From assembly GCA_965215265.1 (NCBI GenBank), contig OZ244048.1:1504001-1568000 (forward strand): 64,000 nucleotides of DNA, given 5' to 3'. This document shows, one piece after another, positions 10,665-39,400 of this stretch (the stretch's first letter is position 1; every line of letters begins with the position of its first letter). This DNA is from Candidatus Poribacteria bacterium (lineage in GTDB: Bacteria; Poribacteria; WGA-4E; WGA-3G). The notes under the pieces were generated by a model, which searched no databases, had not been told where the DNA came from, and was given only the letters and a program-made list of their open reading frames with translations. Made by a program: the position numbers and the translations under genes.

Positions 10665-11429
10665 TTAGGATCTGTTTTTGGCAGTTTCTGCGCGTTCTTG
10701 ATATTCGGCTGCCCCCGCTGCGATCCACGCCCCAATGCCCGTCATGAGGAATTGAACGCCTGCGTTGACGTATTTTTCAACGGTGGCGTTAGTTGTAAGG
10801 GTACCTGCGACGCGTCCGGCGGCTTGGATACGTGCCAAGGCAGCATCGATGGTGGTTTGAACGTCCGGGTGTGTATAGTTGCCGATGTATCCCATAGAGG
10901 TGGCTAAATCCGATGGCGCAACGAAGAATACGTCGATGTGTTCTACCGTTAGAATTTCGTCCAAGTTGTTGATAGCGGTGATGTCTTCAATTAAGACGAC
11001 GAGAAGCGTCTGTGAATTGGCCACGTCAAAATAGTTGTCTACCCCGTAGCCTTGTCTGCTGGTAAACATCCCGCGGTGTCCAATGGGTGCGAATTTGCCT
11101 CCGGAGACGACGTTTTGTGCTTCGGCTTTGGTATTGACATGCGGTACGGCGATGCCCATCGCGCCGCAGTCCAGGGTTCGGTAGATGAGCCCTTGGTCGT
11201 TCCGGTTGACGCGGACGAGGGATGTCATTGCCCAGAGATCGCAGGCACGCGTCAGATCTCCGATTTGCGCAGCATCGACCTTGCCGTGTTCGCCTTCCAG
11301 CCACACGCCGTCAAATCCGAGGGGTCCGAGAGCATCTATATCATCAGAGCTCGTCAATCCGGAGACGACGTACGCGAGTTTTCCGTCTGCCAATTTCTGC
11401 TTGATTCGATTGGGTCGCAGTGTTGCCAC
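10665..11429 (-). CDS. HpcH/HpaI aldolase family protein
   Basis: GFDGVWLEGEHG, LDCGAMGIAVPHV, LIED, IDVFFVAPSDL; likely GTG start 11429 after AGGAGA. Confidence 0.88.
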   Translation of the reverse strand: MATLRPNRIKQKLADGKLAYVVSGLTSSDDIDALGPLGFDGVWLEGEHGKVDAAQIGDLTRACDLWAMTSLVRVNRNDQGLIYRTLDCGAMGIAVPHVNTKAEAQNVVSGGKFAPIGHRGMFTSRQGYGVDNYFDVANSQTLLVVLIEDITAINNLDEILTVEHIDVFFVAPSDLATSMGYIGNYTHPDVQTTIDAALARIQAAGRVAGTLTTNATVEKYVNAGVQFLMTGIGAWIAAGAAEYQERAETAKNRS

Positions 11430-11583
11430 TATGTTTCTCCTATTAGGTCGCTGGTTTTGAAGTCTAGGGTAACATGAATCGCAAATGTTGTCCACTTAAA
11501 TCCGCTTATTCGTCTTGATCGGTTTCATCATCTTCAGGTTGCCCCTCTGTAAAAATTACTTATCGCGACCGCTTATCAGATGT

Positions 11584-12354
11584 TTATGCAGGTGTCTCTG
11601 TTGTTCTTTCGCCCTCTGATTCTTGTGCTATCCATGCTTTCAAATGTGAGCGTGAGATACTAATCGTCCATATCCCCGTCGCATCAGACTTTTTAGCGTT
11701 CCAGCCTTTCGCCCGCATCCTCTTTTTAAGTAGAGTATCCGGCTGTGTGCCTTGACTATGCCAATATTCCCATAAACCCCCAATCTCTTTGTTCCCACGC
11801 GCAACGAGGACTTCTTCACCATCTATTATCTCTGGTTTGAGTGTGGCACCTTCATACGTTACAGCACCCCCACGTACTGGCTTAGAGACGATATTGAACT
11901 TGGGAGCAGGAAGCGAGTCCCCGATTTGCAACAACTCAATTTCCACACCGAAGAACCGAAGATCTTCTCCTGTGATTCTATTCAGCCAATCAAGGGCAGC
12001 GCGATGTCCATCCCTGAATTTCTTTGCGATCCAAATGATAGTCGCTGCCTCCAGCCCTGCGGCCTCCAGCCCTGCGGCATACGTCAGGATCTGTCCAAGG
12101 TGCTTGTGGTTTGTCTTATCTAACTGATTCTCTATGAGCACGCGTGAACCGTCCACTGTATTCCGGCAGACGAGATCTGCGCGGAAATCTCCGATGTCTA
12201 TCTCTTGTGCCTCTAGTTCAAATTCCATGTTCAAGGTTCTAGCGAGGAAAGATAGGTTCTCTTCCTCTGCTAACCAAGGTGTGAAGTGACCAGGTTCTGT
12301 TTTCCAAATTCCTTGTAAGTCAACAGATTTAAGGCGGCTAATTTCTTTATGCAT
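11584..12354 (-). CDS. PD-(D/E)XK-like (ENQL motif) protein resembling the N-terminal domain of DUF4268 proteins, with divergent C-terminus
   Basis: FTPWLAEEEN, ADL...VLIENQL..T.H.HLGQILTYAAGL, ALDWLN, FFGVEIEL; 17 bp downstream of the E2-SEC-C gene. Confidence 0.65.
   Translation of the reverse strand: MHKEISRLKSVDLQGIWKTEPGHFTPWLAEEENLSFLARTLNMEFELEAQEIDIGDFRADLVCRNTVDGSRVLIENQLDKTNHKHLGQILTYAAGLEAAGLEAATIIWIAKKFRDGHRAALDWLNRITGEDLRFFGVEIELLQIGDSLPAPKFNIVSKPVRGGAVTYEGATLKPEIIDGEEVLVARGNKEIGGLWEYWHSQGTQPDTLLKKRMRAKGWNAKKSDATGIWTISISRSHLKAWIAQESEGERTTETPA
12047..12078. repeat. 15-bp in-frame tandem duplication (AAGLE-AAGLE)
   Basis: GCCTCCAGCCCTGCG repeated at 12047 and 12062. Confidence 0.85.
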
Positions 12355-12371
12355 TTAGTGCTGCTCCTTTG

Positions 12372-12998
12372 TTAAAAGCGGCGTTTTGCGGATTCCACTT
12401 GATCCAAGTGGCATTTTTTATACTTCTTGCCACTACCACAAGGACATAGGTCATTTCTGCCAGGGTTATCCTCCACAAAATTGACAATTTCAGCGCGGTA
12501 CTCTTTGATCCCTTCGGCACCATGCGAGTATTCTTCCCAAAGGTTATTTCTGCTAGCCTCAATGCCGAATTTCTCTACATAAGAAAGACGATAAAAAAAT
12601 GGAATTACAAATTCGTTAATAAAAGGTTTAATTCTAAAAACTCGGTTATCCGGGCATTTAATGCCTAGACAACAAGTGTTATCCACTGAATTGATGTGCA
12701 AATCAATGATGTCAATGTTGCATTTTTGAGCGATTTTCTGGTGCCGCCCACCAACTTCATAGACTTTTGGCCATCCATTCGCATCAGTACACCCCAAGCA
12801 AATCTCAATTTCAAAAACATCGCGAATCAAAAAGTCTGTTTCTTTGTCAACATTAACAATTATCAATTTTCCTAATTCGTTATTGTATGTGGCACAAAAA
12901 TCAAGTTCTCCGACTATTTTTTCGGAGGGTGCCTCATAGTATAGGTTTGGAAAAAGCAAATCTAACCATTCTATCTCGCTAGTATTTATCTTCATCAC
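12372..12998 (-). CDS. CBASS ancillary prokaryotic E2-like protein fused to a SEC-C zinc-binding motif
   Basis: WPKVYE...LHIN..DNTCCLG E2-like core, VIPFFY, EYSHG..GI.EY; C-terminal GRNDLCPCGSGKKYKKCH. Confidence 0.75.
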   Translation of the reverse strand: MMKINTSEIEWLDLLFPNLYYEAPSEKIVGELDFCATYNNELGKLIIVNVDKETDFLIRDVFEIEICLGCTDANGWPKVYEVGGRHQKIAQKCNIDIIDLHINSVDNTCCLGIKCPDNRVFRIKPFINEFVIPFFYRLSYVEKFGIEASRNNLWEEYSHGAEGIKEYRAEIVNFVEDNPGRNDLCPCGSGKKYKKCHLDQVESAKRRF

Positions 12999-13003
12999 AA
13001 AAA

Positions 13004-13954
13004 TTACCGTGCGTAGGGCTTCGCAGGGGTGACTATGATTGGTGCAGCCCCCTTGTTTCTGTTATTATTTTTAAGTTCTCCGAAATTGTCACCAAACAAT
13101 TCTCTCCACTTCCTAACACTAGTATTATGGTCCTTAGCTTCAAATGCTTTGTTTATCTTATCGTTATAAAGGTCAAACATGTCCCGAAAATTGCGATATT
13201 TATCTTGATCCCAATGCCGAGTGAAGTTTTCTGTCAGAAGCACCGGATTGCATATTTTCGGCACTAACACATTATCCTGCAAGAAAAAGTTAATCCGATT
13301 TGAAACCGTTTTTAAGGCCGTCGGGATGTCTGTAAAACCTTCACTATCTTCATCACTGGTAACAACAGTGTTGCCAATGAGTGTGGTTAGGAGGATTGAT
13401 TTTACTGAAAAGTTACCTTTGTGGTCTCGCAGATATTTTAACAATCGCGTAACCCGTCTTAGATGTCCATCAGTAATCTTCGTTTTCGCGTTAAACCAAT
13501 CTCTATATCCGATGCCATCAGTGACTTCAAACTTATTTTTCTTGTTATTGCAGATATAATATTCTTCCTCAAGCGTAATGCAAGAAACTAAATCTAAGTG
13601 GAAGTCTCCGGCATAATCGATATAAACGCACCGAGTTTTTCTATGTACCTTATCCTCATATTTTTTATTTTCTCGCAAACAGTCGTAAACAGCGTTTATA
13701 TAGTCCTTAGGTCCTTTGTTCTTATCTTTTTTTATATATAACAACATGTCAGCATCGTACTCTCGATTCCCAACAGGTTTGATGATTGTCTGCAAACCGT
13801 AAGAACCTTGTCGTTCCGTTTTTTCATACCCATCTAAATTCCCACGGAGGTAAGTTTCCACCGCTGCGGAACTATCATTTAACCTTTGCAATCGCGTTTC
13901 ATTGAGATTAACTTCGGTAGAGAGAAACTCTTGAAAATACTTGATATGTTTCAT
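13004..13954 (-). CDS. CD-NTase (cGAS/DncV-like, SMODS nucleotidyltransferase)
   Basis: QGSYGLQTIIKP...EYDADM, FHLDLV third Asp, RLLKYLRD, KSILLTTL, WRELFGDNF; tail PAKPYAR. Confidence 0.9.
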   Translation of the reverse strand: MKHIKYFQEFLSTEVNLNETRLQRLNDSSAAVETYLRGNLDGYEKTERQGSYGLQTIIKPVGNREYDADMLLYIKKDKNKGPKDYINAVYDCLRENKKYEDKVHRKTRCVYIDYAGDFHLDLVSCITLEEEYYICNNKKNKFEVTDGIGYRDWFNAKTKITDGHLRRVTRLLKYLRDHKGNFSVKSILLTTLIGNTVVTSDEDSEGFTDIPTALKTVSNRINFFLQDNVLVPKICNPVLLTENFTRHWDQDKYRNFRDMFDLYNDKINKAFEAKDHNTSVRKWRELFGDNFGELKNNNRNKGAAPIIVTPAKPYAR

Positions 13955-14874
13955 GGACTTTTATCTCCTATTCCAATAAATGATTTAATTTTGTCGGCAT
14001 CTTTCACAAAATCTGCATCTGCGGATGCTTTTAGGTGACCTAAATGTTTTATGTCATCCAACTCCGAATTCTCTATCAAAGGGTCTACGCGCAAGTAGTT
14101 CTCCTTTAAGAGAAGCTGAACCATATTTTTTGATGCTTGAGACTGCATCGCTAAAATGTATAAGATAATTTTTTTCCGTTCCCATCCGGTAAGAAACCCC
14201 CAATTTCGTTTTTGGGTATATATGTTTTTTGAAGATCCGGTTCCGATAGATAGCATCCGAATCTGATCGATGTTCTTCTTGAATTTTGAGATTGCTTCTG
14301 TTAAGGAAACTATTGACGGATTATTTGCCCATAATCCTCCATCAGTTAGCAGTGTATCATCGACCTTTACTGGGTCAAAGAAAGTGGGAGCAGCACATGA
14401 GGCGAGGATCGCGTCTCTCAAAAGTACATGCGGATCCCTACAGTAAGGTAAACCAAGTTGTTTCAGATACTCTGATTTAAAAACGTAAACCTCACCAGTG
14501 CTTAAATTCGTGCTCATTATCATGAGTGGTTTTGAAATCCCACCAAGCGTCACTGAGGAAAAATACTTATCAAGCACTTTATGAAGAGACTTTTCTAAAT
14601 ACTTACTACGAATCCAGGGATGACGGTACCACTTTTTTCGGAAGATACGTGGACCCTCCGCCTCAAAGAGTTGGACTATCTTTTTCATAGGAATGCCAAT
14701 GGCAGCTGCACCAGCAATAATGGAACCTGTGCTCGTACCAGCAATGAGATTGAAACAATCTTTGATCTGAGTATCAAAAGATTTCTCCATTTTAGCCAGA
14801 ATTTGGGCAGAATATATACCTCGAGTCCCTCCACCATCAAGTGAGAGAATACGAAACGTTTCTTCATTGTTCAT
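13951..14874 (-). CDS. capV: CBASS patatin-like phospholipase effector (CapV-like)
   Basis: LSLDGGGTRG, GTSTG, ASCAAPTFF, DGGLWANNP; stop overlaps CD-NTase start (ATGA). Confidence 0.85.
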   Translation of the reverse strand: MNNEETFRILSLDGGGTRGIYSAQILAKMEKSFDTQIKDCFNLIAGTSTGSIIAGAAAIGIPMKKIVQLFEAEGPRIFRKKWYRHPWIRSKYLEKSLHKVLDKYFSSVTLGGISKPLMIMSTNLSTGEVYVFKSEYLKQLGLPYCRDPHVLLRDAILASCAAPTFFDPVKVDDTLLTDGGLWANNPSIVSLTEAISKFKKNIDQIRMLSIGTGSSKNIYTQKRNWGFLTGWERKKIILYILAMQSQASKNMVQLLLKENYLRVDPLIENSELDDIKHLGHLKASADADFVKDADKIKSFIGIGDKSP

Positions 14875-15094
14875 TGAACGGTGCTCCCTAAGGTAATCTG
14901 CTAGAGATTACAATTCATATCAATAATATATTTCCAGCGAAGTTAATCAACTATTTCAGCGCGCATAGATAACCTTCTCATCAAGAACGCTTAACGCTTT
15001 CTGCTCCAAGTTATATGCCTCAGTCCGTTTCCGATAATAATAGAATTCTTTTGTACAATGATGCAGGTCGTAGCGTTGCGATTTTGCAAGAATA

Positions 15095-15123
15095 ATTATA
15101 TCACAGCAGTAAATTAATATCAA
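15095..15123 (-). promoter_or_regulatory. Sigma70-type promoter for the CBASS operon
   Basis: Minus strand TTGATA-17 bp-TATAAT with extended TG. Confidence 0.65.
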
Positions 15124-15157
15124 GGAATTTTGACAGTGGGTAATTTGCGATTGACTA

Positions 15158-16144
15158 TTACAGATTAATAAACCTCTGAATTTTTTCGGCTTCCGTCTTA
15201 AAATCGCGATCGGCGAGGTGCTTCAATTCAGCCAGCTGACTAACATCATCTAACTCCCAAAAGTGTATGATGGAGTTAATTCGGAGGTATCTCTCTTTTA
15301 GCAGACGTTGTGCCATCTCTGCGGTTGCCTGCGATTGCACGCTCAAGACGTAAGATGTGATTTTCTGCCCGCCCCATCCGGTGATGAAACCCCAATTCCG
15401 TCTGTTGCGATACATGTTTTGCGAGTGCCCGGTTCCGATCGAAAGAATCTTGATTTTTTCAATTTCTTGTCCGAGCGTTGATATCGCCTCGGTCAACGCT
15501 GCGATGGCGGGATTATTTGCCCAGAAACTTCCGTCTGCGAGTAAGGCTTTGCCCATGAGGTTCGGGTCAAAAAAGGTGGGTGCGGCACAGGATGCGAGCA
15601 CAGCTTGTCGCAACGTCACATTCCTATGAGTTCCGTCTGGGCTGTCTTGGCTGGCGTGTTGCGGTGGCGGGCTCTTCCCCTGTTTTTCCAAATAATTGGA
15701 TCTAAAAAGATAGCTTCCGCCGGTGCTTAGATCCGAGCAGGTTATCATGAGAGGTTTTGAGATTTGGTTGAGGGCTATTGCTGGCAAGTGTGCGGCGAGC
15801 GGTTTTTCAAGTTGTCTTTTTGAGTATCTGCTGAAGAGTAGGGGGTGGCGATACCATTTTTTCCGAAAGATGTGTGGACCTTCCGTCTCAAAGAGTTGTA
15901 CTATCTTTGACATGGGGATGCCGGTGGCGGCTGCGCCACCGATAATTGCGCCGGCACTGGTGCCGGCAATAAAATCGAAGAGTTCTTGAGCGGCAACATG
16001 ATATTTCTGTTCAAGGTTGGCAAGCAATTGGGCGGCATAAATGCCGCGAATGCCGCCGCCGTCGATGGATAGAATATAAAAAACTTTTTCTTCTCGGGTT
16101 GGCGTGTTATCTGGTATCGGTGAAAGTTTGCGATCTTCGCTCAT
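15158..16144 (-). CDS. Second patatin-like phospholipase, paralog of the CBASS effector
   Basis: SIDGGGIRG, GTSAG, ASCAAPTFFDP, DGS in place of DGG; shares IFRKKWYRHP and NWGF.TGW with 13951..14874. Confidence 0.85.
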   Translation of the reverse strand: MSEDRKLSPIPDNTPTREEKVFYILSIDGGGIRGIYAAQLLANLEQKYHVAAQELFDFIAGTSAGAIIGGAAATGIPMSKIVQLFETEGPHIFRKKWYRHPLLFSRYSKRQLEKPLAAHLPAIALNQISKPLMITCSDLSTGGSYLFRSNYLEKQGKSPPPQHASQDSPDGTHRNVTLRQAVLASCAAPTFFDPNLMGKALLADGSFWANNPAIAALTEAISTLGQEIEKIKILSIGTGHSQNMYRNRRNWGFITGWGGQKITSYVLSVQSQATAEMAQRLLKERYLRINSIIHFWELDDVSQLAELKHLADRDFKTEAEKIQRFINL

Positions 16145-16431
16145 AATTCTATATTATAACACAGAACCGTAAATTGTGCGAATCGTGGTGGGGGCTCGTT
16201 TCTAAGGGAGGCGATAAATTGTTCTAAGATGAATTTTGTTGATTGCGTGCACAAAGCACGCGCATAAGAGTAGAGGATATCCGCCTGATAAAGCAGGTAA
16301 AAAAACGGAAAACCCAGCCGTTTGAGCCCGTGACCTCCCTTGTCAGACGGAAGATTTTGTGCCTTTTCTGCAATGGCCGGTAGAAACGAGAGAGATAAAA
16401 CTAAATTCACATAGTTCAATAAGACGCACTC

Positions 16432-16461
16432 TTGACATAAAATGCTGATTTTTGCTAATAT
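16432..16461 (+). promoter_or_regulatory. Putative promoter of the sod operon
   Basis: TTGACA at 16432 and TGcTAATAT with 18-bp spacing. Confidence 0.4.
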
Positions 16462-16497
16462 GTATCTAAACCACTTGGAGTTGAAGGAGAATAAAAG

Positions 16498-17205
16498 ATG
16501 GATCGGAGAGATTTTATAATCAGAGGTGGGACGGCATTGACGGGCTTGTTGTTTGCGACTTCGCCGTTAGGTCTTTATGCAGCACACCACGAAAGCCATA
16601 CATTGCCGAAGCTGCCTTATGGTTACGATGCTCTAGAGCCGCACATTGACAAGCGGACGATGGAGATTCATCACGGGAAACACCATCAAGGGTATGTCAA
16701 TAAACTAAACGCAGCACTTGACGGTAACGATGACTTGATGCAGATGTCGGTTGAGGCGCTGCTTCGGAATATAGAAAAAGTGCCGAAGGCTATCCGCCAG
16801 GGTGTTATCAATAGCGGTGGAGGCCACGCGAATCATTCGCTTTTCTGGAGCATTATGAGTCCGAACGGCAGTAAGCCGATGGGAAAAGTGGCGGAGGCCA
16901 TCCAAACTACGTTTGGTTCTATTGATGCCGCAAATGAGATGTTCACCAAAGCGGCCACAACGCGCTTCGGATCTGGATGGGCGTGGCTCGTCGTTGATGA
17001 TAAGAAGCATTTGCAGATATATTCGACGGGCAATCAGGATAGTCCGTTGATGGCGGGACATACGCCGATTCTCGGGCTTGATGTTTGGGAGCATGCCTAT
17101 TACCTGAAATATCAGAATCGGCGTGCGGATTACGTGAAAGCGTGGGGGAACGTTGTCAATTGGGAAGCGGTGAATGCTAACTACCTTACGGCAATGAATG
17201 GATAG
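16498..17205 (+). CDS. sodA: Mn/Fe superoxide dismutase with Tat signal peptide
   Basis: MDRRDFI Tat motif; [40 protein letters not shown]. Confidence 0.92.
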
Positions 17206-24923: not shown

Positions 24924-25994
24924 ATGAAAACTGACCATAAGCTCCTTTTTCAAAATGCCCAAGATTTAAAAGCAATTGCTTCGGAAACCATCGATCTGGT
25001 CGTTACCTCGCCTCCATATCCGATGATTGAAATGTGGGATGCTCTGTTTAGTACCCAGAACTCCAAGATTCAGAAAATGTTAGCGTCTGGCAATGGGAGA
25101 CAGGCTTATGAGTTGATGCACGAGATTCTCGATCCTGTATGGGATGAAGTGTTTAGGGTTTTAAAGAATGGGAGATTCGCCTGCATTAATATTGGTGATG
25201 CAACTAGGAAGGTCGGGGCTGATTTTTGTTTGTACCCAAACCATGCGAGAATCTTGAATTATCTCTTAAGTATCGGGTTTTCTGCGTTACCCGATATCCT
25301 CTGGCGCAAACGGACCAACGCACCTAATAAATTTATGGGTTCTGGGATGCTCCCGGCGGGTGCTTATGTGACGCTAGAACACGAATATATCGTTATTGTG
25401 AGAAAAGGTTCGAAAAGAGAATTTAAAAGTGAGTCTGAAAAGGAAAATAGACGCGAAAGCGCGCTGTTTTGGGAGGAAAGGAATGTCTGGTACTCAGATG
25501 TTTGGATGGATATTCGGGGGGCAAAGCAGGACATCTCTAATACGATGTCGAGATCGAGGAGTGCAGCCTTTCCATTTGATTTAGTTTATCGGCTCATCAA
25601 TATGTATTCTGTGAAAGGGGATGTCGTCCTTGATCCGTTTTTGGGGACTGGAACGACGGTGGCAGCAGCAATGACATCGGCCCGCAACAGTATCGGTGTT
25701 GAAATCGACAACGGTTTTCAAGCGTCGATTTGTCAGGTCGTACACCATATTGTCAATTCCTCTAATAATTACCTGAAAGATAGATTGCTAAGACATTTTG
25801 AGTTTGTCCAAAACCGGATCCAAAATGCTAAGCCCGTGAAATATACAAATATGCATTACGGCTTTCCGGTGATGACAAGTCAAGAGAGGTCTATTTTGTT
25901 GAATGGCTTAAAACAGGTTCAAAGTTGCAAGGGTAATACCTTTGAGGTTACGTATGCAACGGAATCTCAAACTATCGTCTGGCAGAACCTATGA
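24924..25994 (+). CDS. Beta-class N4-cytosine/N6-adenine DNA methyltransferase
   Basis: LVVTSPPY motif IV precedes VLDPFLGTGTT motif I. Confidence 0.9.
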   Translation: MKTDHKLLFQNAQDLKAIASETIDLVVTSPPYPMIEMWDALFSTQNSKIQKMLASGNGRQAYELMHEILDPVWDEVFRVLKNGRFACINIGDATRKVGADFCLYPNHARILNYLLSIGFSALPDILWRKRTNAPNKFMGSGMLPAGAYVTLEHEYIVIVRKGSKREFKSESEKENRRESALFWEERNVWYSDVWMDIRGAKQDISNTMSRSRSAAFPFDLVYRLINMYSVKGDVVLDPFLGTGTTVAAAMTSARNSIGVEIDNGFQASICQVVHHIVNSSNNYLKDRLLRHFEFVQNRIQNAKPVKYTNMHYGFPVMTSQERSILLNGLKQVQSCKGNTFEVTYATESQTIVWQNL

Positions 25995-26065
25995 AGAATC
26001 TCAAGGTATAGATGGATTCGTAGGTGAAGAAGCGTATTCTATTAAACCTAACACCTATAAGAGAT
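25990..26065 (+). pseudogene. Remnant resembling the C-terminus of an MjaI-family restriction endonuclease
   Basis: EESQGIDGFVGEEAYSIKPNTYK resembles the EES.GIDG......SIKP..Y motif from memory; no N-terminal part present. Confidence 0.55.
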
Positions 26066-26208
26066 TACTAATAAATCGTCTTTATGAGAGGAGCGGTAGT
26101 CCTCATAGAATAGTGGATAGACCGCAACACAAGTTTCCGTTTGAAGTTTTTGAGAAGTTAAGGTATTATATTTACAAGGTTAATCTGACAGCAGAAGGTT
26201 TTTTTTAG

Positions 26209-28494
26209 ATGCATAAAATCAAAAGTGAGACAAAGAGTATTAAGGAGCTTTTTAAATCTGAGTATACACTTGATTACTACCAGCGTGAATACGTTTGGCA
26301 ACGTATCCATGTGCGTCAGCTTATTGATGACCTCACGGTTCAATTTTTAGCGAATTATGATGAAACACATAATCGCGATCAAGGAAAGAACTATAGCTAT
26401 TATTTCCTCGGTTCAATTATCATCCGAAAAGAAGGAACTCAACGATTTATTATTGACGGTCAGCAGCGGCTCACGACGTTGACGCTTCTCCTGATTAAAC
26501 TCCAACACTTGCTGGAGGATAAAAGTCAAATTGCCCCCCTTATCTTCTCGGAGCATTTCGGGAAAAAGTCATTCAAACTTAATATTCCAGAACGGAAAGA
26601 GATTATGGAGAAACTCTGTTTAGTTGGATCATTTGATGACAAAGACCAGCCTATACTTATTAAGAACATTAATGCGCGCTATAGGGATATTGAGTCAATT
26701 TTTCAGAGTCTTCCGGAACAAGCGCTTCCATATTTCGTTGATTGGCTGCTTGAAAGAGTTTGCTTTGTAGAAATCACTGCCAACTCCGAGAATGATGCTT
26801 ACACGATATTTGAGACAATGAACGACCGGGGGTTATCCCTAACTGCTGCCGATATGCTTAGAGGATATTTGCTGTCGAATATTACCGATAGTGACCTTAG
26901 AGAGACTGCAAGCAGTGTTTGGCGAAAGCGGAGTCAATCGCTACAAGGTATAGGCAAGGACGAGGGGCGAAAGCGGAGTCAATCGCTACAAGGTCGCAAG
27001 GACGAGGATGGAAACGCGATTAAAGCATGGCTGCGCAGTCAATACTCGAGCGGAGTCAGTGATTTTGACGCAATTGGTAAGGAATTCCACCGGTGGGTCC
27101 GTAACCAAGCGGAGGATTTAGGTCTTAAGTCAAGTGAAGCCTTTGCAAATTTTATTAGACAGGACTTCGATTTTTATGGTGATCAGTATTGCCGTTTGCG
27201 CCAAGCAGCTAAATCGCTGACTCCCGGACTTGAATGTGTCTATTACAACGCATTAAACAATTTTACGCTCCAGTATATGTTTCTGTTATCTCTGTTAAGT
27301 GTAAGCGATACAGAAGAAGAAATCTCTGATAAGATAAGAATTGGTGCGCTGTTCCTTGATATCTTAATCCATAGGCGTATCTGGAATAACCTAGCCATCT
27401 CCCAAAGTACCATGGCAGACGAGCTGCCACGAAGTATACCGACTTTCAGGGGCAAGTGTAGCAACGAATTGAGAAATATATTGTATGAAGAACTTATGGA
27501 ACCTACTCTGATTTTTGCTAAGAATGAGCGTCTGACTTTTGCTAGGAATCCGTGGTTCAGTTTACACGGTGGAAACCGACGCAGGATATCTCTAATTCTG
27601 GCTAGAATGACAGATTACGTGGAAGTGCAATCTCAAAGACCGGCTCATTTTTCTGATTACGTCCGGGGAGGCAAAAATAGTTATGAGATTGAACACATCT
27701 GGGCGAAGGATGGGGTTAGTCATCTATCTGAATTTTCTCCGCATGAGTTTGATGAGTATCGTGACCGGATAGGAGGTTTACTACTTTTGCCAAGGAGAAT
27801 TAATGCCAGTTACGGTGATTTACGTTATGAAGAGAAGCGTCATTACTACCTCCGTGAGAATTTGCTTGCGGCAAGTCTCCACGAGCAGACCTACGAGCGC
27901 AATCCTGGCTTTAAAAAGTTTATTGAAGACAGCGGTTTGCCCTTCAAGCCGCATCCTGGATTTAATAAAAATGATCTTGATGAACGTCAACAGCTCTATC
28001 AGCAAATTGCGGAGCGAATCTGGAACCCGGAGCGTCTGAAACTCCCTTATGGAGAAGAACCGTCGGAAGCCCATCCTTATGATTCACTGCATCAAGATCC
28101 GGAAGTGGGGACAATAGAACGGATTAAGAATTTAATTCCTGAAGACCGTAGAAAATACTACGAAACGCACTATCGGCAAAGAATCGACCAATTTTACCTG
28201 CGTGTTGCAGAGTTAAAGAATTTTGTAGAAGAAAAAGGGTGGAAGTTAGAGCTCAGATTTCGGAAGTCCTACTGTGCTTTTTATTTAAAAAACCGCTTAG
28301 TATTTGGGGTGATCTTAAACCCGCCAAGATTTGCTGCGTGGATGACAAAGCAAGAGGCAGTGATGTGTAATAGATACTGTAAATTTGAACGTTATAGTCC
28401 CCAGCATCGACGTGCTGTTTATCCAATAGGTACGACAATAGATACCATTAGACCTATTCTTGAATTTTCGTATAGTAAACATCAGATAGATTGA
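26209..28494 (+). CDS. GmrSD-family (DUF262 + DUF1524/HNH) type IV restriction protein with C-terminal extension
   Basis: YQREYVW, FLGSII, IDGQQRLTT, IFETMNDRG..L; EIEHIW...GGLLLL...IN. Confidence 0.88.
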   Translation: MHKIKSETKSIKELFKSEYTLDYYQREYVWQRIHVRQLIDDLTVQFLANYDETHNRDQGKNYSYYFLGSIIIRKEGTQRFIIDGQQRLTTLTLLLIKLQHLLEDKSQIAPLIFSEHFGKKSFKLNIPERKEIMEKLCLVGSFDDKDQPILIKNINARYRDIESIFQSLPEQALPYFVDWLLERVCFVEITANSENDAYTIFETMNDRGLSLTAADMLRGYLLSNITDSDLRETASSVWRKRSQSLQGIGKDEGRKRSQSLQGRKDEDGNAIKAWLRSQYSSGVSDFDAIGKEFHRWVRNQAEDLGLKSSEAFANFIRQDFDFYGDQYCRLRQAAKSLTPGLECVYYNALNNFTLQYMFLLSLLSVSDTEEEISDKIRIGALFLDILIHRRIWNNLAISQSTMADELPRSIPTFRGKCSNELRNILYEELMEPTLIFAKNERLTFARNPWFSLHGGNRRRISLILARMTDYVEVQSQRPAHFSDYVRGGKNSYEIEHIWAKDGVSHLSEFSPHEFDEYRDRIGGLLLLPRRINASYGDLRYEEKRHYYLRENLLAASLHEQTYERNPGFKKFIEDSGLPFKPHPGFNKNDLDERQQLYQQIAERIWNPERLKLPYGEEPSEAHPYDSLHQDPEVGTIERIKNLIPEDRRKYYETHYRQRIDQFYLRVAELKNFVEEKGWKLELRFRKSYCAFYLKNRLVFGVILNPPRFAAWMTKQEAVMCNRYCKFERYSPQHRRAVYPIGTTIDTIRPILEFSYSKHQID
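26921..27007. repeat. In-frame tandem duplication (45 + 42 bp) inside GmrSD
   Basis: GGCGAAAGCGGAGTCAATCGCTACAAGGT at 26921 and 26966; encodes RKRSQSLQG twice. Confidence 0.9.
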
Positions 28495-33977: not shown

Positions 33978-36119
33978 ATGATTCAAAACATAAACGGCTC
34001 CGAAATTTGTGCACTGACCCTCTGCATGGTGCTTTTCTTAATGCCGCTGTCCACCTCGGCGCAAACTGTTAATATCCCCGACGCGAACCTGCGTGCTGCC
34101 ATTGCAGAGGCACTTGGCAAAGCACCAGCCGCAACGATGACCGCGGATGAGATGGAAACTTTGACGCGGTTAGAGGCACCTGACAAAGGGATTCTTAATT
34201 TGACAGGGCTGGAGACTGCGAGAAATCTGGAAGAGATAAACCTTGACAACAATTTGATAACGGATTTATCGCCACTCACGGAATCCACCAGACTGCGTGG
34301 CATAGAGTTGAGACAGAACACGATCACAGATTTATCACCACTTTCAGAATTAATCAGCTTGACAGGACTAGCACTTGACTCTAATTTCATACGTGACCTC
34401 TCACCGCTGGCCGGATTAATCAATTTGAGATGGTTAGGTATTTCGGATAATATCATCTCCGATTTATCCCCCCTAGAGGGTTTGATAAAACTAGAGTCGA
34501 TATGGATGAGCGAAAACCCGCCCGTAGACCTGTCGCCTCTAGAAGGATTAATGAGTTTGACACGTTTCCACTCTTGGGGTACCCCCATACTAAACCTGGC
34601 ACCGCTTGCGGAATTGCCAAAGCTGAGAAAGATAGATATTTGTGGTGCTGGAATATCAGATCTCTCCGCTTTGGAAGGGGTAACGGGCTTAAAAGAACTG
34701 TATCTCGTCGGTAACAATATCTCAGACATCTCCCCGTTGGCGAGTTTAACACAGTTGACACGGTTGAGTCTTAAACATAACGAGGTATCGGATGTAAGAC
34801 CGCTTGCATCTTTGAGTAACTTGACATGGATAGAGCTTGAGGACAATGCGATATCAGACTTTTCGTCCTTGGATGTGTTTCCTGAGAATGTCACTATCCT
34901 TCGGCGCGACAACCCGGGATTCACACGCGCTGCACCGAAAATAGAGGGGCCGTGGTTGTGGGTTATAGTGTCAACAGAAGGAATGTCTGGTTCAAGAGCA
35001 GCAGCTTCTGGAAGAGATTTTCTGGAACATAGCAGTCAGAGTGCTGTAACAGAATTAGAAATTGCGACTCAGGGGGCGACAGAAGGCGATACTGTGGGGA
35101 ATAAAGTCTGGACAATCGGCAGACTCAGGAGAAAAGGGGGCAATAACATCAATGAATTGGTGAACGCTACAGGCCTGGGAACAGATGATATAAATCATCA
35201 TGTGGCTTATGGTCTGGTTACCTTGGACGCACCACGGGAGCAGAATACAAAGATGTTTGTTGGAAGCAGTGATGCTGTTAAGGTCTGGCTCAACGGAGAG
35301 TTGGTTCACGATAACCCTATAGACCGGGATGCTCATGGGTATCAAGAAAATTTCCCTGTCACGTTAAAACAAGGAACAAATATTTTGTTGGTTGCTGTTT
35401 ATGAGGGCGAAGGCTGGTGGAGCGGCTTTTTTGGCTTTGATGCTAGTGCAGACTATACAGTGCTTCTACCGGATACGCGAGTTAGGAGAGGACAGCCGCG
35501 TGTAGCAGATGTGAACGTGGATGGAGAGGTGAGCATTCTGGATCTGATTCTGGTAGCACGCGACTTGGAAAGAAACAAACCGCTTAACTTGCGAACAGAT
35601 ATAGACGGCGATGGAAAAGTCACTATCTCAGACCTGGACCTTGTGGCACAAAGTATGGACTCAATAACAGGTGCTGCCGCCCCTACCTCACTTGCGATGA
35701 ACGCCTATATTTCTTCAACAATGATACGCACGTGGATAGCACGTGCGCAGCTTGAAAACGACGGCTCGCTTCTCTTTGAGCAAGGCATAGCGAACCTGCG
35801 GCAACTTTTAGGAGACATGCTGCCCGAAAAGACACGGCTTCTGGCGAACTATCCGAATCCATTTAACCCTGAAACCTGGATACCGTATCAACTTGCACAA
35901 GCAACCCGTGTGCAGATCCGTATCTATGCGTCAAGTGGCACGTTAGTGCGCACCTTGGATTTAGGGCATCGGGCTGCAGGACACTATGAGCAGAAAAGCC
36001 GTGCCGCCTATTGGGACGGCCGCAATCAACTCGGTGAAGCTGTAGCAAGTGGTGTCTATTTTTACACATTATCTACAGCCGATTTCACGGGTACCGGCAA
36101 AATGCTCATCAGAAAGTAA
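33978..36119 (+). CDS. Secreted internalin-like LRR protein with beta-sandwich, dockerin-like and FlgD/T9SS-like C-terminal domains
   Basis: IPDANLRAAI cap, L..N.ISDLSPL repeats, GSSDAVKVWLNG, DVNVDG and DIDGDG loops, NYPNPFNPETWIPYQL. Confidence 0.9.
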   Translation: MIQNINGSEICALTLCMVLFLMPLSTSAQTVNIPDANLRAAIAEALGKAPAATMTADEMETLTRLEAPDKGILNLTGLETARNLEEINLDNNLITDLSPLTESTRLRGIELRQNTITDLSPLSELISLTGLALDSNFIRDLSPLAGLINLRWLGISDNIISDLSPLEGLIKLESIWMSENPPVDLSPLEGLMSLTRFHSWGTPILNLAPLAELPKLRKIDICGAGISDLSALEGVTGLKELYLVGNNISDISPLASLTQLTRLSLKHNEVSDVRPLASLSNLTWIELEDNAISDFSSLDVFPENVTILRRDNPGFTRAAPKIEGPWLWVIVSTEGMSGSRAAASGRDFLEHSSQSAVTELEIATQGATEGDTVGNKVWTIGRLRRKGGNNINELVNATGLGTDDINHHVAYGLVTLDAPREQNTKMFVGSSDAVKVWLNGELVHDNPIDRDAHGYQENFPVTLKQGTNILLVAVYEGEGWWSGFFGFDASADYTVLLPDTRVRRGQPRVADVNVDGEVSILDLILVARDLERNKPLNLRTDIDGDGKVTISDLDLVAQSMDSITGAAAPTSLAMNAYISSTMIRTWIARAQLENDGSLLFEQGIANLRQLLGDMLPEKTRLLANYPNPFNPETWIPYQLAQATRVQIRIYASSGTLVRTLDLGHRAAGHYEQKSRAAYWDGRNQLGEAVASGVYFYTLSTADFTGTGKMLIRK

Positions 36120-36167
36120 TTTGTATATATCAGCACGTTACCCCCTGATGTGGCAGAATATCGTAGA

Positions 36168-36200
36168 TTGACATCCCGCCCGGAACCGGGCGGGAGTCAA
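36168..36200. repeat. GC-rich hairpin with CCGGAACCGG core
   Basis: TTGAC(A)TCCCGCCCGG-AA-CCGGGCGGGAGTCAA. Confidence 0.75.
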
Positions 36201-36240
36201 CCGAACTTACCAACCCACTGGGAGCCTTTTGATGTTCTTT

Positions 36241-36435
36241 ATTCATAACATAGAAAGCCTCGGACGAGATTTATGGAAGGGTTATCATAACATCAATCAC
36301 TGTTGGGCTCCTGTAGAGAAAAAAACGAAAAAAGGAGAGATACGAAAAGATGATTCATAGCATAGATAACCTCAGACGACATTTACACAGGACTTCACAA
36401 AACATAACCCTTTTAGGTACGGAGAGATACGAAAA
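36241..36435 (+). repeat. Tandem array of ~44-bp repeat subunits ending at the start codon
   Basis: Boxes at 36266, 36335, 36378 and 36422; last GGAGA lies just upstream of ATG 36437. Confidence 0.85.
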
Positions 36436-36436
36436 G

Positions 36437-39400
36437 ATGATGAAACAGATGAGAGCCTTCTACCTTCTTGTTGTTTTAACAGTTATCGCGCTAGGGGTTG
36501 GCACCGCTGATGCACAAAACCTCGCGCGACAGGCGTATGCTATCTTTGAACAAAACTGCCTGAACTGCCACGGCCCGCATGGTGCCTATACGGAGGAGCT
36601 CGTGATTGAATCCGCGCAAGGCTTGATTGATTCAGGCGTGGTGGTGCCGAGCAATGCTATCGGTTCGGAATTCTATCGCCGTTTGCTTGGCGATACGGAG
36701 AACGGTCTGCAGATGCCGTGGGGAAAACAGCCACTTTCGCCAGAAGCTATTGGAATAATCGGGGCCTGGATTTTAGCAGGTGCACCGAGCTGGGAGATTC
36801 AACACGATGTTGACTTCATTAGCACGGCTGATATGCTGAACACCATCCAAAGACATCTGGAGACGCTTTCCCCCTTCAACCGCCCCTTCGCGCGTTACTT
36901 TACGCTGACCCATCTCTATAACGCCGGCGAGCTGCCTGAGGCGCTGAGCGCCTACAAGATAGCCCTCTCTAAACTGATAAACAGCCTCTCGTGGGGGTTT
37001 GAGATTCACAATCCGGATGCCATAGGCCCGGCAGGGACGATATTCTACATAGATCTGCGGGACTATGAATGGGATACGAACGACGCATGGACATCGATAG
37101 AGCAGGTCTATCCGTATGCGATTGAGTTCGATGTTCAAACGCAAGCGCCGCTGCGTGACAAACTAATGCACCTCCGTGAAGAAATGGCTTGTGAGGTGCC
37201 GTATGTGTATGTCGATTGGTTCCTCGCGACGGCTGCCTTGCCGCCGCTCTATCACGATATCCTGGATCTGCCCCAAACCGACCGGGAGTTGGAGCGAAGG
37301 CTTGAGGTAGATGTGGCAAGGAATCTTCAGGCGGCACCGGGCGTGCGTGTGTGGCGTGCCGGGTTTAATGATTCCGGGGTGTCAAATCACAACCGCGTGG
37401 TTGAACGACACACGTCTCGGTATGGCGCATATTGGAAAAGCTACGACTTTGATGGGAGTGTAGGCACGCAGAATATCTTCACGCACCCATTGTCTTTCAG
37501 ACAGGATGGTGGTGAAGTCATCTTCAACTTGCCGAACGACTTGCAGGCATACTATATCTCGGATGAGTCTGGGAATAGGATAGATGTAGCGCCGACAACG
37601 ATAGTTTCTAATCCTGCGGCGAGAGATCCAGCAGTGCACAATGGGCTGTCGTGCATAGGGTGTCATACGGAAGGGATGAAGACGTTTGAGGATGGTGTGC
37701 GTTCTGTAGTACTCCAGGCGGGGAACCCACCGTTTGACAAAGAACAGGCGTTGCGTCTGTATGTTGAACAGGGCGAGATGGATGAGCTGGTGGCAGACGA
37801 TGCGAGGCGCTACAGTGAGGCGCTGAAGGAGACGGGTGGTGAACCTGGTGGGATTGAGCCTGTGCACCGTTTCTTTGAGGTGTATCAAGGTCCAGTTGAT
37901 GCGGCGTATGCTGCGGCATCGGTAGGCTTAAAAACTGGGGCGTTCCGGGAACAGATTCGTGCGAAGCCGAGTTTACAACGCCTGGGTTTGCTATCGCTAG
38001 TGGATGAGACGGGGAATGTGAAGCGTGATGCGTGGACGTCGCGTTTTCAGGAGATAGTGAGCGCGCTGAATTCCCCTGACGAGCCTGTTGTGACTCAGCG
38101 TGTGGTTGTGACACCGACGGGCACTTTTCACATCCCCGATGCGAACCTCCGTTCGGCAATTGCCGAAGCCCTCGGCAAAGCACCCGGTGCGGTGGTGACG
38201 GCGGAGGATATAGCAAGGTTAACGCGGCTTGATGCGGATGAAAGAGGCATCCGCGATTTGACAGGGCTTGAGGCGGCGACAAGACTGGAACGGATTGAAT
38301 GTCGTCATAATGCGATAGCCGACCTCTCCCCACTAGCCGGATTAACGCGTCTGAATAACATTAAACTGCGAGGGAACAGAATAACCGATGTATCGCCACT
38401 CGCCGACTTAATCAACGTGGACTGGCTGGGGCTTGAGGAGAACGCGATATCCGATTTATCTCCACTCAAAGGGTTAGTAAAATTGGACGGAATAGGGATT
38501 TCGGACAATCCTATATCGGATGTGTCGCCCCTTGCCAGTCTCATCAGCCTGGAAGGGATAAACGCTTGGCGTACCCATATTAACGACTTTTCCGTTTTGG
38601 CGAAGTTACCAAAGCTGGAGTGGATAGAATTTGGCGACAACAGAGCTATATCCGCATTGCCGTCTTTGAATGGATTAAAAGCGTTGAAACGACTGGAAAT
38701 CAATAACTGCAGCATCTCAGACCTCTCCGGGTTGGCGGAATTACAGCAACTGGAGTGGTTAACATTAGTTAATAACTTGATATCGGATGTGTCGCCATTA
38801 AGAGAGCTAAAAGACTTGAAACATCTGAATCTTGATGCTAACGTTATATCAGACGTGTCGCCGCTTGCAAAACTAACGCGGTTGGAAGTGCTGTACCTTG
38901 AGAACAACGTCATATCGGACACATCGCCGCTTGCAGGGTTAAACAACTTAGAACGGTTGGACCTTCGCAACAATGCGATACTCGACTTTTCGTCTTTAGA
39001 AGCATTACCTGATAAGACATTTATCCGGATGGACGGCAATCCGGGTTTCCCTTCGGGCGGTCCGAAAATAACAGGCCCCTGGTTATGGGCGATAGTACCG
39101 GGAATACGTCTTGATGACAACACAGATTTTCTGGCACGAGCAACGGGTGGTGCAGCGACAGAACTAAAGGTGGCTACCAACGGTGCAAAGGAAGGAAAGG
39201 CTGTGGGAGACAGCGTCTGGACACTTCACAAGCTGGCAGCTAGCGGTGGTAATAACATCAACCGAATGACAGATTCCCTTGGATGGGGGACAGGTGCAGA
39301 GATATATAACCATATCGTCTACGGTTCGGTTGTCTTGGATTCCCCGCATACACAAGAGACAACGATGCTGGTGGGTAGCGATGATGCAGTCAAAGTCTGG

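Follow-up and report, generated by a model that had tools for sequence, protein, structure and literature searches.

Operon organization and phospholipase effector

The element considered here is a three-gene operon on the minus strand of a stretch of DNA from Candidatus Poribacteria bacterium (assembly GCA_965215265.1, contig OZ244048.1, 1,504,001 to 1,568,000). This whole stretch of 64,000 nucleotides is called the window, and all coordinates are window positions unless a related locus is named. [quoted passage not shown] A first-pass annotation had read it as an antiphage signaling system based on cyclic oligonucleotides (CBASS) of the E2-only, or short type II, kind; the analysis arrives at the same class, as the cyclase, the effector, and the stand-alone E2 all display the expected features and E1 and JAB genes are absent. 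The genes and the protein segments discussed below are the following (pLDDT, predicted local distance difference test).

13951..14874, minus strand: patatin gene, CapV-like phospholipase effector, 307 residues (PF01734, PADLOC, and NCBIfam matches)
13004..13954, minus strand: SMODS/CD-NTase cyclase gene, 316 residues (PF18144 and PADLOC matches)
13031..13090, minus strand: variable, disordered cyclase linker, residues 289-308 (length varies in 24 aligned cyclases; pLDDT < 50 at residues 297-308)
13007..13030, minus strand: cyclase tail motif T-P-A-K-P-Y-A-R, residues 309-316 (V308 and A315 nearly invariant; 24-cyclase alignment and 47 partner tails)
12372..12995, minus strand: UBC-fold E2 gene, 207 residues from the ATG (PADLOC E2 models and fold matches)
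12669..12698, minus strand: E2 active-site stretch, His100 to Cys109 (118-sequence conservation)
12408..12458, minus strand: SEC-C zinc knuckle, residues 180-196, predicted ligands C184, C186, C195, and H196 (PF02810)

The three genes are as tightly coupled as had been described. The patatin and cyclase genes overlap by 4 nucleotides (ATGA), and a gap of 8 nucleotides separates the cyclase stop codon from the ATG of the E2 gene. A GTG at 12998, one codon upstream of this ATG, is an alternative start and would yield an E2 of 208 residues. All reading frames are intact and the catalytic motifs are kept. PADLOC, a check that the earlier annotation had recommended, recognizes each product with a CBASS model: the phospholipase (PDLC00758, 3.8e-88), the cyclase (PDLC00793, 2.3e-115), and the E2 (PDLC00872, 3.6e-23, the lowest value among the CBASS E2 models). 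An E1 or JAB gene is not found within about 10 kb of the operon, and the genome's single Prok-JAB match above the cut-off is about 1.8 Mb distant. The genome contains one SMODS cyclase and one E2 of this kind.

The effector gene overlaps the start of the cyclase gene and its product matches CBASS-specific models. Besides PF01734 (9.4e-31) and the PADLOC phospholipase model, the patatin is matched by NCBIfam NF041079 CBASS_lipase ("CBASS cGAMP-activated phospholipase") with 259.6 bits (cut-off 200). It possesses the GTSTG motif at residues 46-50, with Ser48, and a DGG motif at residue 178.

The cyclase and its C-terminal tail

The cyclase is a member of the SMODS family (PF18144, 3.9e-29). Its catalytic set GS...DxD...D is complete, and G50, S51, D67, D69, and D121 are invariant among 24 aligned cyclases. 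In the AlphaFold2 model (pLDDT 91.3) the fold ends at a helix formed by residues 276-287, after which no secondary structure is predicted. When the model was compared with solved structures by Foldseek, the best match was CdnD 7d4j (E 1.3e-16, template modeling (TM) score 0.82), while 7ljl and 7to3_C were matched with a TM score of 0.80. The E-values for CdnD, CdnC, CdnB, and CdnG all fall within 1e-16 to 1e-12, with the Serratia enzyme SmCdnG slightly behind the others. The best sequence match among solved structures is BcCdnD 9sa4 (9e-12), an enzyme named in the accessible part of PMC13424991; SmCdnG is matched over the N-terminal part only (8.3e-08). By these matches, enzymes of clades D, C, and B are the nearest solved relatives, ahead of those of clade G, but by a margin too narrow to assign the cyclase to one clade.

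The flexible tail ending in KPYAR that had been noted earlier is confirmed: the cyclase ends in ...TPAKPYAR, behind a segment (residues 297-308) where the pLDDT falls below 50. In the 24 aligned cyclases, a linker of variable length is followed by V-T-P-x-K-P-Y-A-R, and the motif persists in cyclases with just 24-26% identity to that of the window. The tails of 47 separate upstream open reading frames, each the partner of a related E2, were counted by hand. The aromatic position is occupied by Tyr in 37 tails, Phe in 4, Trp in 4, and His in 2, and the residue after it is Ala in 42 and Gly in 5. Exactly one further residue follows in 45 of the 47 tails (Arg in 36, Lys in 4, Trp in 3, Gln in 1, and Gly in 1), and three residues follow in the other two. 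A small conjugation-site residue with a short removable extension, one of the features by which membership of E2-only CBASS was judged, would be represented here by A315-R316, with Ala315 as the proposed point of conjugation and Arg316 as the residue proposed to be lost. The removal of Arg316, which would expose Ala315 and had been proposed before, is well supported by comparison: it fits the tally of tails, the natural fusions described below, and the precedent of Serratia.

Fold and active site of the E2

The AlphaFold2 model of the E2, built with 27 sequences, has a pLDDT of 76.9 and is well ordered over residues 1-150. Foldseek of this model against the PDB returned no match at E ≤ 0.001. 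The fold was also searched with VIA-align, independently of Foldseek, against 48,161 PDB representative chains, and the best 50 rows are all of the UBC, UEV, or RWD type. Among them are the Tsg101 UEV domain (Z 7.3, root-mean-square deviation 2.8, 99 residues aligned), UFC1 (Z 6.7), the E2 domain of Cap2 (7to3_A, Z 5.7), and the CBASS E2 of Serratia, SmE2 (8hsb_B, Z 7.1, root-mean-square deviation 3.5, 123 residues aligned). When the list of Foldseek was rescored with VIA-align, SmE2 in 8yjy_B reached Z 7.5 over 126 residues. Sequence and profile searches of the PDB sequences retrieved SEC-C peptides only and did not reach SmE2. The assignment of the UBC fold is therefore based on the VIA-align matches and the E2 hidden Markov models together, and not on Foldseek. 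The absence of such a fold from a structure prediction had been named as a reason to abandon the CBASS reading; a UBC fold is predicted.

The conservation of the E2 was assessed in an alignment of 118 sequences, namely the window E2 and 117 representatives of at least 195 residues. His100 is present in all 118 sequences, Cys109 in 116, Leu110 in 110, and His158 in 115. The neighboring Cys108 (67/118) and Asn102 (43/118), in contrast, are not conserved. Because of this difference, Cys109 is likely the catalytic residue, and "HxN" is not a motif of the family. The "H-x-N...C-L-G" pattern reported in the first-pass annotation thus holds for its His, Cys, and Leu, but not for its Asn. The operon accordingly contains, next to the cyclase gene, a stand-alone E2 of predicted UBC fold with a conserved candidate catalytic Cys. 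According to the accessible text of Yan et al. (10.1101/2022.05.25.493364), C101 of SmE2 acts together with H87 in cleavage and loading, H152 is a second, pH-sensing histidine, and both histidines are conserved only in the E2s of E2-only CBASS. The Cys/His/His pattern of the window E2 would fit this description, with similar spacings: 9 and 49 residues in the window E2 and 14 and 51 residues in SmE2 (H87/C101/H152). A predicted complex of the cyclase and the E2 scored 0.75, but one unrelated control scored 0.68, and the prediction counts neither for nor against the pairing.

The SEC-C knuckle

The C-terminal part of the E2 contains a SEC-C zinc knuckle (PF02810, 5.9e-11, 42.5 bits with a Pfam gathering score of 20.4). 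It matches the C-terminal peptides of SecA in 1ozb and 1sx0 (about 6e-06) and the C-terminal piece of YchJ (5e-05). The E2 had been described as ending at the knuckle; in fact, 11 residues follow it.

The rarity of the E2-SEC-C fusion that the first-pass annotation implied is contradicted by the family. Close homologues form 611 clusters (90% identity) at E ≤ 0.001, and the 120 of these that were listed all have PF02810 and the knuckle, some as tandem pairs. When 1.84 billion representatives (50% identity) were searched with a profile, 1973 matched at E ≤ 0.001, the weakest of which may be SEC-C-only, 354 at E ≤ 1e-10, and 53 at E ≤ 1e-30. Of the best 150 of the 1973, 104 are 195-300 residues long, and 97 of these have the knuckle; so do 12 of the 13 longer than 500 residues and 13 of the 33 shorter than 195 residues, the latter being mostly fragments. 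It is kept in more than 90% of the full-length members. Each predicted metal ligand is conserved in 111 of the 118 family sequences, with the final His replaced by Cys in 44 of the 111. Two tandem knuckles are seen in a subset of E2s of about 233-247 residues (P0003-P0010, P0122, and others; locus L008, 6656-7357). From these sequences, SEC-C is judged to be an ancestral and near-universal part of this E2 branch, and hence the rule and not the exception.

The architecture is also already part of the 2023 catalogue of CBASS E2s, since the SEC-C piece alone (43 residues) matches six PADLOC CBASS E2 or E1-E2 models at model positions of about 165-200, and since a SEC-C protein of Haliscomenobacter matches PDLC00872 over its full length. 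A full-text search, with subscription papers and supplements outside its reach, found no discussion of SEC-C with CBASS, CD-NTase, or SMODS as far as the retrieved papers were checked; in the one that was consulted, SEC-C belongs to a different protein, lactococcal Rugutis.

The SecA knuckle reportedly binds SecB as well as ribosomes (10.1101/613315). For the window E2, the best guess is that SEC-C serves in docking or positioning, in place of an E2-binding fold of the kind that clade G cyclases possess. This role is favored because the cyclase lacks a folded E2-binding module and a conserved knuckle has been added to the E2. It could also be an acceptor surface or, in line with the metal-dependent sensor or targeting role suggested in the first-pass annotation, a metal or redox switch or a targeting signal. 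If SEC-C is a docking or sensing element, it would represent a new control point for CBASS. If it is merely structural, the locus would be an ordinary member of its branch.

Relatives, fusions, and other partners

Related loci were collected from species-representative genomes (53 loci, with 52 E2 copies that include the N-terminus) by a scan with peptide patterns of the close relatives, and the counts apply to these and not to the wider family. A cyclase detectable by tblastn lies directly upstream of 47 of the 52 E2 copies. Two of the remaining five are accompanied by a second cyclase type of about 400 residues (PADLOC PDLC00770, 4e-132 and 4e-141), one follows the 3' piece of a cyclase of this type that is cut by a transposase-like insert, one is situated at a locus edge, and the last is L020. 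Where the upstream DNA spans at least 2 kb (44 copies), a patatin precedes the cyclase in 39, and inspection added one further copy. In L013 (4808-7948), a downstream HNH-SAVED effector (PDLC00739, 1.5e-115) is found instead of the patatin.

The second cyclase type (L013, 4808-7948; L001, 1-3902, where the insert interrupts it; L008, 4488-7357) bears the same tail. An HNH-SAVED-like gene was recognized in L001 by eye only. Several genomes contain two E2-SEC-C operons within 12 kb.

At four loci (L022, 4774-6660; L036; L038; and L050, with the E2 at 6001), cyclase, linker, and E2 are fused in frame. The Tyr-Ala of the tail is kept, and the chain then runs on into the E2. Among the representatives, 13 fused proteins were found (P0121, P0125, P0139, and 10 more), with an aromatic-Ala junction in 12 and an aromatic-Ser junction in 1. 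These cyclase-linker-E2-SEC-C fusions are 525-607 residues long. They are expected to be pro-proteins that process themselves, provided that the E2 cuts in the way of its Serratia counterpart. The models PDLC00793 (462 positions) and PDLC00770 (509 positions) exceed the cyclases that they match (positions 1-304 and 5-361) and may have been built on such fusions.

Two plasmids harbor more distant relatives. In Haliscomenobacter hydrossis pHALHY02 (L057, 2823-4657), a cyclase with the tail variant K-P-W-C-R-S is paired with an E2 that matches PDLC00872 full-length (8.1e-70); RefSeq names them "nucleotidyltransferase" and "SEC-C metal-binding domain-containing protein". In Runella slithyformis pRUNSL03 (L058, 2731-4468), the E2-SEC-C protein lies behind a metallo-beta-lactamase (MBL)-fold metallo-hydrolase and not behind a cyclase. 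This E2 matches PADLOC E2 models (5e-44) and aligns to the E2 alignment in hhalign with a probability of 98, and its MBL-fold partner carries K-P-W near the C-terminus. The E2 module may thus serve clients other than cyclases. Both plasmid homologues are "SEC-C (metal-binding) domain-containing protein" in RefSeq, which leaves the E2 unnamed.

Base composition and distribution

Two features lie upstream of the coding region:

14875..15157, minus strand: low-GC leader or intergenic region, upstream edge of the compositional island (guanine-plus-cytosine (GC) content 0.364)
15095..15123, minus strand: sigma-70-like promoter match, TTGATA-17 nucleotides-TATAAT, with an extended -10 TG (11 of 12 positions)

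The operon and its leader form a discrete compositional island. This is evident from the GC content of the E2 (0.381), cyclase (0.384), and patatin (0.398) genes and of the leader of 283 nucleotides, as compared to 0.487 and 0.493 in the two flanks, 0.491 in a second patatin gene, and 0.479 in a PDC-S11-like gene, both described below. The operon had rightly been called AT-rich. It had also been credited with a consensus promoter of its own. The match, situated 221 nucleotides 5' of the patatin ATG, is indeed the top-scoring site in a scan of 11400-16600 (5.2 kb). However, sigma-70-like sites are not enriched in the scanned region (14, with 10.1 ± 3.0 in shuffles), and the promoter is therefore a consensus match only. 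An Rfam scan of 11000-17000 gave zero matches at E ≤ 0.1. A repeat scan of 11400-16600 did not find flanking repeats that would mark an insertion, but only the similarity of the two patatin genes to each other.

Within the phylum, 24 of 176 genomes have the E2; the one other genome assigned to the genus of the window is not among them. The titles of the metagenome-assembled genomes that harbor close relatives name Poribacteria, Latescibacterota, Dehalococcoidia/SAR202, Caldilineaceae, Binatia, Spongiisociaceae, and one Owenweeksia, which are lineages typical of sponge microbiomes. A quick E2 tree groups the window E2 with four rows from Poribacteria and the one from Owenweeksia (support 96). 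The phylum labels on this tree require 7 changes with a minimum of 5, and inheritance would therefore have been mostly within phyla, with few transfers. Broad cross-phylum transfer is not supported.

Proposed mechanism and alternative explanations

The operon is probably an intact, horizontally acquired E2-only CBASS that protects by abortive infection. As is suggested by the protein families, infection would lead the cyclase to make a cyclic nucleotide signal, which would activate the phospholipase; the membrane would then be destroyed and the infected cell killed. The E2 would act without an E1, as does that of Serratia marcescens. With Cys109, His100, and the second histidine His158, it would recognize the P-x-K-P-Tyr-Ala tail presented on the disordered linker and cut after Ala315, thereby removing Arg316 and loading the cyclase as a thioester on Cys109. 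The cyclase would subsequently be passed to a lysine on the E2 or on another cyclase, a step that may set cyclase activity. Trimming, loading on Cys109, and transfer to lysine are all modeled on the Serratia system.

Several observations weigh against this reading. The fold matches of the E2 (Z 7.1-7.7) are middling according to the notes of the tool itself. The correspondence of H100/C109/H158 with H87/C101/H152 of SmE2 is a likeness of pattern and spacing only, as the sequence profile missed SmE2, and a conserved lysine near His158 that would be an obvious equivalent of K159 was not found. The proposed conjugation-site residue is Ala, whereas Gly is described as highly conserved in E2-CBASS. 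The cyclase also lacks the C-terminal helix and sheet that recruit the E2 in the subgroup of SmCdnG, and E2 recognition must therefore differ. Finally, a disordered internal cyclase loop was linked to the sensing of phage proteases by Hobbs and Kranzusch; a large loop of this type is absent from the cyclase model, in which the pLDDT is at least 89 in every block to residue 290.

The alternative that survives best, although it is unlikely, is that E2-SEC-C is a general tail-conjugating module. Like Cap2, it would chiefly couple the cyclase or other partner enzymes to third-party proteins of the cell or the phage instead of retaining the cyclase on itself, and SEC-C would determine the target or the location (SecB, the ribosome, or the membrane). 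The relative on pRUNSL03 behind an MBL-fold hydrolase, the finding of this E2 branch next to either of two cyclase types and with patatin as well as HNH-SAVED effectors, and the reported partners of the SecA knuckle can all be read in this way. However, just two plasmid examples are known, both distant (28-32% identity), and in the one E2-only system that was studied, the cyclase is linked to its own E2 and to further copies of the cyclase.

Equally doubtful is a more elaborate proposal, in which the module for recognition or switching now resides in the E2 and no longer in the cyclase. SEC-C would then dock the client or provide a lysine-rich acceptor surface, and its metal or redox state would gate whether the cyclase is held or released. 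The alarm would be wired to zinc or iron, an oxidative cue, the ribosome, SecB, or the membrane, and the same module would control MBL-fold hydrolases via a P-x-K-P-aromatic-small tail.

It is considerably less probable that the E2-like protein is a non-catalytic, UEV-like adaptor, which would bind the cyclase tail or another partner without trimming or thioester formation. The top structural matches are indeed Tsg101 UEV domains that lack a catalytic Cys (Z 7.3-7.7), and the Asn of the eukaryotic HPN motif is not conserved. Yet Cys109 and the two histidines are kept almost without exception, in representatives down to an E-value of about 1e-21. Moreover, without processing it would be difficult to account for the small residue with one more behind it at the end of the cyclases, or for the fusions, from which the cyclase would have to be released by cleavage.

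Least credible of all is a silent or decaying passenger of a defence islet that no longer works: the insert is recent and low in GC, its distribution in the phylum is patchy, and broken relatives exist (the cyclase of L001 cut by an insertion sequence, and those of L031 and L032 without the N-terminal part), but the three frames of the operon are intact, every catalytic motif is kept, and the coupling is preserved.

Neighboring genes

The operon is surrounded by genes for an aldolase, an enolase-family protein, a superoxide dismutase, and a molybdopterin oxidoreductase, and by the second patatin and the PDC-S11-like gene. The second patatin gene (15158-16144, minus strand) is located directly upstream and encodes a stand-alone CapV-like protein of 328 residues with 53% identity to the operon patatin. 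It matches PDLC00758 (5.8e-74) and NCBIfam CBASS_lipase (206.4 bits, cut-off 200), and its GTSAG and DGS motifs are intact. Its GC content of 0.491 is host-like, and a promoter-like site of its own is present at 16182..16153. It could be left over from an earlier CBASS, or it could be an additional effector that responds to the signal of the operon.

The PDC-S11-like gene (11584-12354, minus strand) starts 17 nucleotides 3' of the E2 stop codon and has an AAGGAG ribosome-binding site. Its match to PDC-S11, a PADLOC candidate system, is confined to the N-terminal 160 residues of the latter (1.7e-72), and no Pfam match was obtained. It was rejected as a fourth member of the operon, given that no tblastn match was found in the 53 related loci and that its GC content (0.479) is host-like. 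Together with the two patatin genes, it forms a small defence islet.

Elsewhere in the window, the plus strand at 24924-28494 encodes a DNA methylase (N6_N4_Mtase, 1.6e-40) and, behind it, a GmrSD-type restriction enzyme (GmrSD_N, 4e-32), in a second low-GC stretch (0.40-0.44). At 33978-40651, also on the plus strand, two large proteins of 713 and 1433 residues are encoded, with leucine-rich repeats and dockerin, cohesin, and FlgD-Ig domains.

Comparison with known systems

The type II CBASS with Cap2 (an E1-E2 fusion) and Cap3 (a JAB peptidase), such as CdnD02-Cap2 of Enterobacter cloacae (7TO3), would share with the window operon the conjugation of the cyclase at its C-terminus by a UBC-fold enzyme. 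The cyclase core is closest to CdnD (TM 0.80 for 7TO3), and the E2 domain of Cap2 is among the fold matches of the E2 (Z 5.7). In contrast to this system, the operon contains neither an E1 adenylation domain nor a JAB peptidase. By inference, the E2 must therefore accomplish both the trimming and the loading.

With the CBASS of the DncV-CapV type, the operon has the effector in common, which passes the NCBIfam model for cGAMP-activated phospholipases and has kept the Ser and Asp motifs. The cyclase, however, is not DncV-like (DncV is found at rank 36 or lower in the Foldseek list). The knuckle of the E2 resembles the SEC-C of YchJ and of the SecA C-terminus (PF02810; PDB 1OZB, 1SX0, and 9L6B), with the same C-x-C-x8-C-H arrangement and a basic core. 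Here, it is fused to a UBC-fold E2, and in the family the final His is often a Cys (44/111).

The closest parallel is the E2-CBASS of Serratia (SmCdnG-SmE2; PDB 8HSB and 8YJY), as described in the accessible texts of Yan et al. (10.1101/2022.05.25.493364) and Xiao et al. 2026 (PMC12948482). Its cyclase tail ends in ...Y405-G406-E407. The E2 removes E407, or MBP or GFP when fused behind it, and links the cyclase at G406; a G406A variant still links. According to Xiao et al., 73.65% of 406 E2-CBASS cyclases belong to clade G; these are long proteins in which a C-terminal helix and a three-stranded sheet recruit the E2, and their terminal Gly is conserved. As in Serratia, the window operon has a stand-alone E2 with a UBC fold (Z 7.1-7.5 to SmE2), no E1 or JAB, and, as a likeness of pattern and spacing, a Cys flanked by two conserved His. 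The tail likewise consists of an aromatic residue, a small residue, and one putatively removable residue (Y314-A315-R316 in the window). The differences are just as clear. The window E2 comprises 207 residues with SEC-C, compared to about 160 in SmE2 without it, and the two share about 11% identity in the structural alignment, with no sequence-profile match. The cyclase comprises 316 residues rather than about 407, does not possess the long form with the C-terminal alpha-helix and three-stranded beta-sheet that binds SmE2, and has Ala in place of Gly.

In the accessible literature, the Serratia system with its clade G cyclase is the single E2-only CBASS that was dissected. The window locus belongs to a much larger, catalogued branch, with 354 representative clusters at E ≤ 1e-10, and is itself unexceptional; the branch may already be present in the clade tables of Millman, Whiteley, and Xiao. 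As far as can be told from its sequences, this branch departs from the studied example in three ways: the SEC-C knuckle, the short cyclase with a linear Tyr-Ala tail, and the natural fusions, which are frequent. These departures recommend the branch for experimental work and offer testable handles. A short linear, degron-like tail (P-x-K-P-Tyr-Ala and one residue) would replace the folded E2-binding domain, the natural cyclase-E2 fusions are predicted to cut themselves, and the Cys/His/His set predicts an E1-independent self-loading like that of the Serratia enzyme.

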